Positions 18,001 to 21,000 of a stretch of 41,681 bases of DNA are shown here, one piece after another; positions within the stretch are counted from its first letter, which is position 1; every line of letters begins with the position of its first letter. Source of the DNA: a virus (Duplodnaviria > Heunggongvirae > Uroviricota > Caudoviricetes); the IMG/VR virus record IMGVR_UViG_2606217106_000020; one strand, given 5' to 3'. Position numbers: made by a program.

Positions 18001-21000
18001 AGGTGCTTCTAATGAAAACCCGCTTCGGCGGGTTTTGTTGTATTGGAGTATCATGATATTACCTGGATTCCGTTTTTCTCTACGACTGAAAGAAGGCGAA
18101 GAGCGGCACCTCCCGGCCGTTTTACACCACGTTCCCAGTCTGATATCAGGTTTTTACTGACGTTGAGGTATCTGGCAAAAACAGGTTGAGACAGATGCTC
18201 TCGTTCGCGCAGTGCACGGATCCTTTCCGGAGACATTACCGGCGCTGGCTGGAGACAAGTTTCATCGAATTCTCGCATAGTCTGTTTCGTTACTGCGCCG
18301 ATATCATGAAGCGATTCCATCATTTCATGTACGGATGCAAGCGCATCACTGCGGTAATTTTTACTCATTGGGTACCTCCGTAAACTGACCCTGTAGAATC
18401 AGTTGTGCCAGTTGTTCATCTGTTAGATTGAGTACGTGAGGAGCCCCTTCCGAAATGCACTTTCCTCAGTAGCGGTTATATTTTCACGTTCATTTTTTGC
18501 GTATGCATATACGAAAAAGGCCCTTGTGCCGACGCGATAGAAAATGATTGTGCGATAACCGCCAGATTTGCCGCCACCGACTCGTGGCAGACGTTGCTTG
18601 ATAACGCCGTTACCCAGGTTTGCTGAGATAAGCCCGTTATCAGCCTGTTTAACAATTTCGCGCAGTGATTGGTCGGATATTTTGTTTTGCGTGCAAATCG
18701 CTCAAACCAGGCGTTTTTAAAAATGCGCATTTTTTGTTCCGTTATTAATGTATAACACATAGTGTTACATTGCGTAGGGATCTGCAATGCCATCAGTTTG
18801 ACAACGTCGCGTGTTCGGGGCTATATTCCTCACGCGCCAGCAAAACCTGGCGTCGGGATTAGCACCCCGGATATCGAAACGGTGCATAACCGCGCTGGCG
18901 GTTTTTTTATGCGCTAAGCACAGTCACATTCGCGATTTATGGCGGGCTGTGTGGGGGGGCCGAAAGGCTCGCCGGATGTTTCGACCGGTAGTGCTAACCC
19001 CGCACAGTTCGCCACCACGATGATTAGCACCTGACGGTGGCGAGGTAAAAATTATCGAAACGCGAGGTCATTATGGCTGTTCAAATTTCTGTCGAAAACC
19101 TTTCCCCTGTTACCTATAACCAGATCCCCGTAATTACTACTGAACTGTTGGCTCACCTTTACGGAACAAAAATCAAAAACATTTCTGATAACTTTCTGAA
19201 CAACACGACGCGATTCATGCCCGGAAAGCATTACTTTAAAATTGAAAAAAACGAATTACGCGAGTTTAAGAACAGACCCGAAACAATCGGGTTAGTTGGT
19301 AAAAATGCCCGCTCCCTCATCCTCTGGACAGAACGCGGCGCAGCCCGTCACGCAAAAATGCTCGAAACCGATCGGGCGTGGGAGGTATTCGAAAAACTGG
19401 AAGACTGCTATTTCAGCCAGGGAAAAACAGCACCAACCGAACAGCAGCCGCAGATTCAGCCACAATTCACAGCCGAAGAAATCATCCTCCTTTGCTACAT
19501 GCAGCTCTGGATGGAAAAAGCCCAGGACATCAGCAAACACCTGTATCCCATTATGAAAGAGCTGAACTCCTCATACACGAACAAGCTGTATGACATTGCG
19601 TTTGAGACCATCTACATGGTGACGAAGAACAGAGACGCGCTACTGAGGGAGGTAACACGTCTCGACATGTCAAGTTCCGTTATCCAGCGGGCCATGCCAA
19701 TGCTGAAAAGCCTGCGGGCAAGACAATTTGAATTCTGAAACTAAAGGAGCTTCGGCTCCTTTTTTGTTGGGAAAATCCAGTGAGAGGGAATAATGAACCA
19801 GACTATCTTCCTCCGAAGTAAGCAGCAGCAACAATTCGCCATTAACGCCATCCTTGCAACAACTCTCGATAAAGACAAACCCGTTACGATCCGCATCACC
19901 GATTACAAGCGGAATCTCGATCAAAATGCCAAATTTCACGCGATGGTCGCTGATATCTCCCGACAGGTTCAGTGGTGCGGCAGATGGCTAAAACCAGAAC
20001 AGTGGAAAGTTTTGTTAATCAGCGGTCATGCCGTGGCGACAAAACAGGAAGCTGATGTTTTGCCTGGTCTTGAAGGTGAATACGTCAATATCCGCGAAAG
20101 CAGTGCGCAGATGAGCGTGAAGCGTATGGCAAGCCTGATTGAGTACACAACTTCCTGGGCTGTGGAGCAGGGTGTCAGATTTACCGACAGGAGGTATGAA
20201 TGAGACGACAGCGACGAAGCATTACCGATATAGTCTGTGAAAACTGCAATTACCTTCCAACGAAACGTTCCAGAAATAAACCCAGGCCAATCCCAAAAGA
20301 ATCTGACGTTAAAGCCTTCAATTACACGGCTCACCTGTGGGATATCCGGTGGCTAAGACATCGTGCGAGGAAAACAAGGTGATTGACGTGATGATTTATT
20401 CGGGGCTATATTCCTCACGCGCCAGCAAAATCTGGCGTCGGGATTGGCGTCCTGGATAGAGACCGCGACAGATACACGCCGCGAGCGTGTTTTTTATTGT
20501 CGTATGCACGCGCACATCTGAATTATGGTGGGCTGTGTGGGGGCGGAGAGATCCGCGCCGGTCGGTTTCCCGGTTACGCCAACCCTGCACAGTTCACCAC
20601 CAGACGATTGGCGTCGTCGGTGGTGAGTTATTAAGAAACCACTCGAGGGCGTCATTATGACAACTCAAATCTCTGTTGAAACACTCTCCACGATTACTTA
20701 CAAGCAGATCCCCGTTATCACTACCGAACTTTTGGCGCACCTTTACGGCACAGAAGCTATTCGTATTCGCCAGAATCACCACGAAAACAAAGGTCGTTTC
20801 ATTGAGGAAAAACACTTCTTCAAACTTGAAGGTGAAACTTTACGTGAGTTCAAGCACAGAGTAGCTTTTAACTACTCTGTGAAAATTGCCCGTAACGTTC
20901 GCTCCCTCATCCTCTGGACAGAACGAGGCGCAGCCCGTCACGCCAAAATGCTAGAAACCGATCAGGCGTGGGATGTGTTCGAAAAACTGGAAGACTGCTA

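Follow-up and report, generated by a model that had tools for sequence, protein, structure and literature searches.

The 41,681-nucleotide (nt) stretch of viral DNA analyzed here (IMG/VR record IMGVR_UViG_2606217106_000020; the window) carries a higBA2-type type II toxin-antitoxin operon in which, with high probability, ordinary decay has turned the toxin gene into a pseudogene through two derived single-base deletions and has left the antitoxin gene intact. The window is identical (100%) to the corresponding part of the Escherichia coli cM8a chromosome, where it forms a lambdoid prophage, and the O104:H4 outbreak strains match the region at 99.9% identity. The locus is a case of ordinary toxin pseudogenization with antitoxin retention, a familiar phenomenon, in a module that is already annotated in RefSeq. 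A first-pass annotation made from the DNA alone had recognized a decayed type II locus of the RelE/ParE superfamily, and the full-length match of the repaired toxin to the family profile bears this out.

Translation of the minus strand from the ATG at 18730 agreed with the three-frame reading of that annotation, down to the last frame ending 8 nt inside the antitoxin gene. Frame A opens with MRIFKNAWFERFARKTK and then passes through residues foreign to the family up to a stop at 18476-18478; frame B (ISDQSL...GGGKSGGYRTIIFYRVGTRAFFVYAYAKNERENITATEESAFRKG...), with a family-like stretch running from ISDQSL to GGGKSGGYRTIIFYRVGTRAFFVYAYAKNERENITATEESAFRK, stops at 18423-18425; and frame C supplies GAPHVLNLTDEQLAQLILQGQFTEVPNE before its stop at 18361-18363. 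The three pieces, when joined, make a repaired toxin of 123 amino acids (aa), and the pseudogene measures 370 nt against the ancestral 372 nt (123 codons and the stop). Comparison of this repaired protein with Pfam gave a match to PF06296 (“RelE”) along the entire profile (positions 1-120 of 120, 155.6 bits with a cut-off of 27, E 8.2e-46), so the three-frame pattern is far beyond chance. In its present state, the product initiated at ATG 18730 would be 84 aa long and contain only 17 native residues, and the translation check found no ATG, GTG, or TTG start in the frame B and C segments. The uninterrupted open reading frame (ORF) of a PF06296/HigB2-type toxin is thus broken by two frameshifts and, since no canonical start follows downstream, the locus is a pseudogene of a family member and not a functional member.

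The origin of the two lesions was established against the intact allele of HCP4S3_I4 (WP_077168034.1), whose locus is 99.1% identical to that of the window and holds an uninterrupted 372-nt toxin gene and an identical antitoxin protein. The two toxin genes are separated by only three changes, namely the loss of an A from CGCAAAAAC, an A/G substitution, and the loss of a C from GGAAGGCGGCT, and each frame junction is accordingly a 1-nt deletion, as had been supposed. The first junction, previously placed at about 18705, lies in fact in the A4 run at 18685-18688, whereas the A5 run at 18715-18719 is unaffected; the deletion shifts the frame after codon 15-16 and cuts the invariant N-terminal strand and helix off from the rest of the protein. 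The second deletion removed the central base of GGCGG at codon 96, and the earlier description of both lesions as losses from homopolymer runs therefore holds for the first and fails for the second, where the G run was itself made by the loss of the C, or of a T. At this site, SCU-104 has GGCTG and phage PhiR12_3 has GGTGG; because the intact and half-intact alleles carry GGCGG, GGCTG, or GGTGG, the GGGG is a deletion scar and not a contracted homopolymer. By alignment of the alleles, both lesions are shown to be derived relative to the intact forms. Projected onto the model of an intact homologue, lesion 1 falls where helix 7-15 ends, and lesion 2 falls within the predicted helix 87-101. In an alignment of 20 family members (58-85% identity), K5, N6, A7, W8, F9, E10, R11, F12, R14, and K15 are invariant, as are, wholly or nearly, many C-terminal positions; loss of either end of the toxin should be inactivating. 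Judged by these comparisons, the toxin gene is a recent pseudogene.

The family to which the broken gene belongs is known and structurally characterized: by sequence, the locus is that of a PF06296 HigB2-type toxin of the RelE superfamily, for which mRNA cleavage is predicted. The comparison of the repaired protein with toxin families, proposed in the first-pass annotation, returned homologues of both kinds, Pfam members and the solved Vibrio cholerae toxin HigB2 (VcHigB2). An intact 123-aa protein cluster 98% identical to the repaired toxin was found on 654 contigs, and the search also brought in about 1,900 other PF06296 members, 123-129 aa long, whose sources include Salmonella, Halomonas, and Chromatiaceae. 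No NCBIfam model matched the repaired toxin, and a PADLOC scan returned no match for the toxin and generic helix-turn-helix (HTH) matches only for the antitoxin, so the pair is not tied to a catalogued defence system. The closest solved structure by sequence was V. cholerae HigB-2 (E 3e-3 with the single sequence, 9e-5 with a 20-member profile). An AlphaFold model of P0001, the intact homologue with 98% identity (predicted local distance difference test, pLDDT, 86.7; predicted template modelling score, pTM, 0.81), when searched against PDB with Foldseek, gave VcHigB2 in all of the top ten places (probability 1.0, template modelling (TM) score 0.48-0.62), followed by Mycobacterium tuberculosis HigB1, YafQ, and ParE2; the modelled fold is that of the RelE/ParE superfamily. 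HMMER aligned R60, Y77, and K79 with Arg64, Tyr82, and Lys84 of VcHigB2, which Hadzi et al. (2017, PMC5416850) place in the active site of a ribosome-dependent mRNase; within the family, R60 is invariant, K79 is nearly invariant, and position 77 is Y or F. One 122-aa E. coli homologue, P0009, carries a scrambled inner stretch, AFSSMR-TQRM in place of AFFIYAYAKNE, which suggests that two compensating frameshifts have altered the active-site strand, possibly inactivating the toxin once more and independently.

The resemblance to the V. cholerae HigB2/HigA2 pair (PDB 5JA8, 5JAA, 8A0X; PMC5416850) extends from the same toxin-before-antitoxin order, with overlap of the genes, to a predicted RelE-like fold (Foldseek probability 1.0, TM score 0.55-0.62), the conserved GKxGGxR loop, and the equivalent active-site Arg, Tyr, and Lys. 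In contrast, sequence identity between the toxins is no more than about 21%, the protein of the E. coli prophage exceeds VcHigB2 in length by about 13 aa and is predicted to have an extra C-terminal helix and strand, and the toxin gene of the window is a pseudogene. The antitoxin of V. cholerae (VcHigA2) likewise has about 104 aa, a C-terminal HTH, and an N-terminal segment of roughly 40 residues. The antitoxin of the window consists of an N-terminal segment of about 44 aa and a C-terminal XRE HTH, detected by Pfam as HTH_3 at residues 50-94 (32.3 bits, cut-off 23) and also as HTH_31; its closest solved structure by sequence is V. cholerae HigA-2 (E 7.9e-8), matched over the HTH at residues 45-99, and a sequence search found no detectable similarity between its 44-residue N-terminal extension and VcHigA2 residues 1-36.

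The antitoxin gene is intact and is preceded by a GGAGG Shine-Dalgarno sequence (Table 1), just as first described. The toxin gene comes first in the operon, with the stop of frame C 8 nt inside the antitoxin ORF (ATGAGTAA), and the intact alleles share this arrangement and the 8-nt overlap. The Shine-Dalgarno sequence, 6 nt upstream of the antitoxin ATG and kept in all aligned alleles, would allow translation of the antitoxin independently of the broken toxin ORF. An imperfect palindrome was read by eye 17-41 nt ahead of the toxin ATG, with a core (ACACTATGTGTTATA) that is kept in an allele lineage only 77% identical in the toxin gene; it is a candidate operator in the putative promoter region of the operon, and neither the promoter scan nor the repeat search detected it. 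On the minus strand, the scan for sigma-70 promoters returned none upstream of the toxin. An RNA hairpin is predicted at 18372-18442 on the minus strand (-17.5 kcal/mol; z -2.3 against shuffles of these 71 nt downstream of the second lesion), in which CCUC/ACGUA just 3' of the G run pairs with the antitoxin Shine-Dalgarno region UACGGAGG. This structure could couple antitoxin to toxin translation, but its upstream arm is not kept in the O157-type allele, and it may therefore be due to chance.

The comparison across related prophages that the first-pass annotation had recommended revealed both intact versions (HCP4S3_I4) and A4/A5 variation at the first site. A set of 5,426 complete E. coli genomes was queried with short exact seeds, each diagnostic of one allele. 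By its exact seed, the allele lacking the C was found in 22 of them and the A4 allele in 28, in addition to two that were seen directly and had been missed owing to flanking single-nucleotide polymorphisms; both lesions together occur in 20 complete genomes, including independently sequenced O104:H4 isolates. FORC_069, ML35, TOE17, and others carry A4 only, and 23CRST047/049 carry the C deletion with A5, so that all four combinations of the two sites were seen; this implies either that recombination took place in the 244-bp interval separating the sites or that the A run was shortened more than once. In the phage collection, a single record, PhiR12_3, has the A4 lesion, together with the GGTGG variant at the second site. 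The intact alleles of E. coli prophages, those of HCP4S3_I4 and O157:H7 PV15-279 (WP_001217944.1), are annotated as “type II toxin-antitoxin system RelE/ParE family toxin” and occupy the same lambdoid prophage position, with hokD as a neighbour and the ORF6N antirepressor-like gene downstream; their 123-aa toxin ORF is unbroken, whereas the window allele is two bases short, and the PV15-279 antitoxin differs from that of the window by one residue (99% identity). Compared with the O157-type allele, nucleotide identity is 77% in the toxin gene and 92.5% in the antitoxin gene, and compared with SCU-104 it is 98.9% and 84%, respectively. This discordant divergence across the operon makes recombination plausible and indicates breakpoints at or near the toxin/antitoxin junction.

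Five different lesions were found to break the toxin gene: A5 to A4, the C loss, A3 to A2 (in 23CRST047/049), G4 to G5, and an IS66-family insertion. The G4 to G5 insertion splits the gene in 54 of the 179 genomes of a second allele lineage, which is common in prophages of Shiga toxin-producing E. coli, and the IS66-family element of NMBU-W12E19 (NZ_CP042892.1, locus 2848-5265) sits at about window position 18604 in a toxin gene that was already doubly frameshifted. Overall, at least 86 of the 217 E. coli carrier genomes (40%, a figure inflated by clonal sampling) have a frameshifted toxin. At the same time, the antitoxin coding sequence (CDS) was full length in all 20 loci inspected, and between lineages with toxins that are 86% identical, the antitoxin protein shows 99% identity.

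Ordinary decay would account for these data as follows. A higBA2-type operon forms part of the cargo of a lambdoid prophage, where it lies between the replication genes and ninB, and the A5 to A4 change at codon 15-16 and the C loss in GGCGG at codon 96 have split the gene of a predicted 123-aa ribosome-dependent mRNase into three frames. Functional toxin would no longer be made, the one initiated product being truncated and the downstream segments having no start of their own, and toxicity would probably be lost with it. The antitoxin, whose ORF is intact and has a Shine-Dalgarno sequence to itself, would continue to be expressed, and presumably goes on binding to the upstream palindrome and repressing the operon; it might have been retained because there was too little time for decay, because it still serves some regulatory purpose, or because it protects against relatives that come in. 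Decay that begins with the toxin is to be expected, because loss of the antitoxin first is lethal, and an intact antitoxin beside a dead toxin is by itself no proof of selection for the antitoxin. Degenerate toxin-antitoxin loci and orphan antitoxins are a general phenomenon, in which the toxin is lost first and the antitoxin/HTH repressor stays intact (see the cross-interaction review PMC7354431); measured against these, the present locus is not distinctive, being rather a well-sampled case with several independent lesions.

Several observations weigh against this account. RefSeq lists the toxin fragments (18423-18698) as ordinary CDS, never flagged as a pseudogene, the PGAP calls being 68, 85, or 112 aa long with ATC, ATA, or ATT as starts. 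Both deletion sites are Z_ZZN tetramers (A_AAA and G_GGG) in the right frames, and trace translational correction is conceivable. With all four site combinations present, recombination or recurrence obscures how many mutational events took place and in which order, and a single outbreak clone accounts for many of the carrier genomes.

The most serious competitor of ordinary decay is adaptive loss of the toxin, with the antitoxin kept by selection as an anti-addiction or immunity factor against incoming higBA2 phages, or as a regulator. The diversity of the toxin lesions, the large share of frameshifted carriers, the lack of any damaged antitoxin among the inspected loci, the near identity of the antitoxin across lineages with diverged toxins, and the A4 allele in the genome record of a phage are all in line with it. 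However, neutral theory predicts toxin-first decay as well, and selection is not needed to explain it; the substitutions on the toxin-dead branches are too few for a ratio of nonsynonymous to synonymous substitution rates (dN/dS), and the counts are inflated by clonal sampling. The first-pass annotation had offered a related suggestion, that the orphan antitoxin might neutralize a related toxin elsewhere, but no second toxin copy was found in cM8a or O104:H4 at or above about 65% nucleotide identity, a search outside which a more distant paralogue would fall. Adaptive loss is thus possible but considered unlikely, and rather less credence still is given to its most specific form, in which the toxin-dead/antitoxin-alive condition would be a selected state, with lambdoid prophages repeatedly knocking out the HigB2-type toxin and keeping the antitoxin as an anti-addiction/superinfection-immunity factor against relatives with an intact higBA2.

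The alternative raised in the first-pass annotation, a phase-variable switch in which slipped-strand mispairing at the A and G runs would reversibly toggle the toxin within a population, fared poorly. A4 and A5 alleles do both circulate among sequences at least 99% identical, the other lineage is broken by G4 to G5, and several of the mutations sit at short homopolymers. But the runs are only 4-5 nt long, and the tracts at contingency loci reach about 7 nt or more; at the second site a C was lost, so slippage cannot restore the ancestral sequence, and function would need two simultaneous reversions. The state is, moreover, identical in all O104:H4 assemblies of 2009-2011 and their derivatives, and other lineages bear unrelated and irreversible lesions such as IS66, which makes a reversible switch highly improbable.

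An equally slight chance is given to recoding, by which two successive -1 ribosomal frameshifts would restore small, regulated amounts of the full-length toxin. The sites, A_AAA (ACA AAA U, in the 18680-18683 region) and G_GGG (AAG GGG C, 18444-18447), are tetramers in the correct frame, slipping at both gives exactly the family-like sequence, and the 71 nt downstream of the second site fold better than shuffles (z -2.3). Neither site, however, offers a slippery heptamer, no structure follows the first (z +0.34), and the hairpin arm at the second is not kept in the O157-type allele. In E. coli, tetramers without a stimulator give about 0.147% frameshifting against a background of 0.112%, and an apparent G_GGG signal was ascribed to internal initiation (PMC4066793); two near-background events in series would amount to roughly 1e-6. 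Alleles that are 99%, 93%, and 77% identical also lack the frameshifts, and the 1,900 family members are single ORFs of 123-124 aa, so that the frameshifts are not conserved features. Finally, a sequencing or assembly artefact in an intact gene, the outcome that would have undone the first-pass annotation, can be practically dismissed: single-base indels near short runs are a typical class of long-read error, but the same two deletions recur in 20 complete genomes from many laboratories, the second removes a C between G pairs and is no homopolymer miscount, and single-lesion intermediates exist in several independent genomes.

Table 1 Coordinates in the window of the toxin-antitoxin locus, its lesions, and adjacent elements
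Feature	Position	Strand	Basis or remark
hokD-type type I toxin gene	16952-17107	+	Pfam HOK_GEF, E 5.6e-24
59-aa ORF preceding the Doc gene	17317..17496	+	Matches no Pfam or PADLOC family
Doc/Fic-family toxin gene, intact	17515..18000	+	Pfam Fic; motif HPFANANKR
G+C-rich hairpin AAAACCCGC-TTCG-GCGGGTTTT	18015..18036	strand-neutral	Between the convergent doc and antitoxin genes
Antitoxin/autorepressor candidate, intact, 105 aa	18051..18368	-	ORF; identical to RefSeq WP_000042397.1
Toxin pseudogene, HigB2-type (PF06296), RelE superfamily	18361..18730	-	Translation, Pfam, comparison with intact alleles
GGAGG Shine-Dalgarno sequence of the antitoxin	18375-18379	-	Kept in all aligned alleles
Lesion 2, GGGG from loss of the central base of GGCGG	18444..18447	-	Allele alignments
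Lesion 1, A4 run, ancestrally A5 (CGCAAAAAC to CGCAAAAC)	18685..18688	-	Allele alignments
Imperfect palindrome AATGTAACAC-TAT-GTGTTATACATT	18747..18771	-	Read by eye

The decayed operon is set in an otherwise recognizable lambdoid prophage, inserted in ynfG, and the window begins at its integrase and continues with exo/bet/gam, N, a cI-like repressor, cII, replication genes, nin genes, Q, lysis genes, and head genes. The toxin-antitoxin pair is coded on the strand opposite to the early-right genes and is flanked on one side by the hokD gene and the Doc-family toxin gene and on the other by an ORF6N/P22AR antirepressor-like gene and ninB. The Doc gene converges on the higA2-like gene, with a shared hairpin between them; this G+C-rich element is likely a bidirectional intrinsic terminator. 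The small ORF preceding the Doc gene may be its unclassified antitoxin. The hokD, Doc, and higBA2 genes thus place three toxin-antitoxin modules within 1.8 kb at the replication-nin junction of the prophage. According to the cM8a annotation, further cargo comprises genes for Ser/Thr protein kinase, RuvC-family, and DUF3024 proteins between N and the repressor (9098-11008, minus strand), a 636-aa DUF6645 protein downstream of Q, in the place of stx in Stx phages (24173-26083, plus strand), and a lipopolysaccharide (LPS) core heptose(II)-phosphate phosphatase gene after the lysis cassette (28380-28961, minus strand).

A literature search from the angles of HigB2, DUF1044, and orphan antitoxins yielded no publication that deals with this module of E. 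coli prophages. The significance of the present finding is modest and lies mostly in annotation hygiene: owing to the RefSeq CDS calls, toxin-antitoxin censuses count a dead toxin as a live one in O104:H4 and its relatives. The locus is, in addition, a clean and well-sampled example of toxin-first decay, combining five independent lesions, an intact antitoxin, and an apparent recombination breakpoint at the gene junction, and it could serve as a test case for the question of whether orphan antitoxins in prophages are selected.

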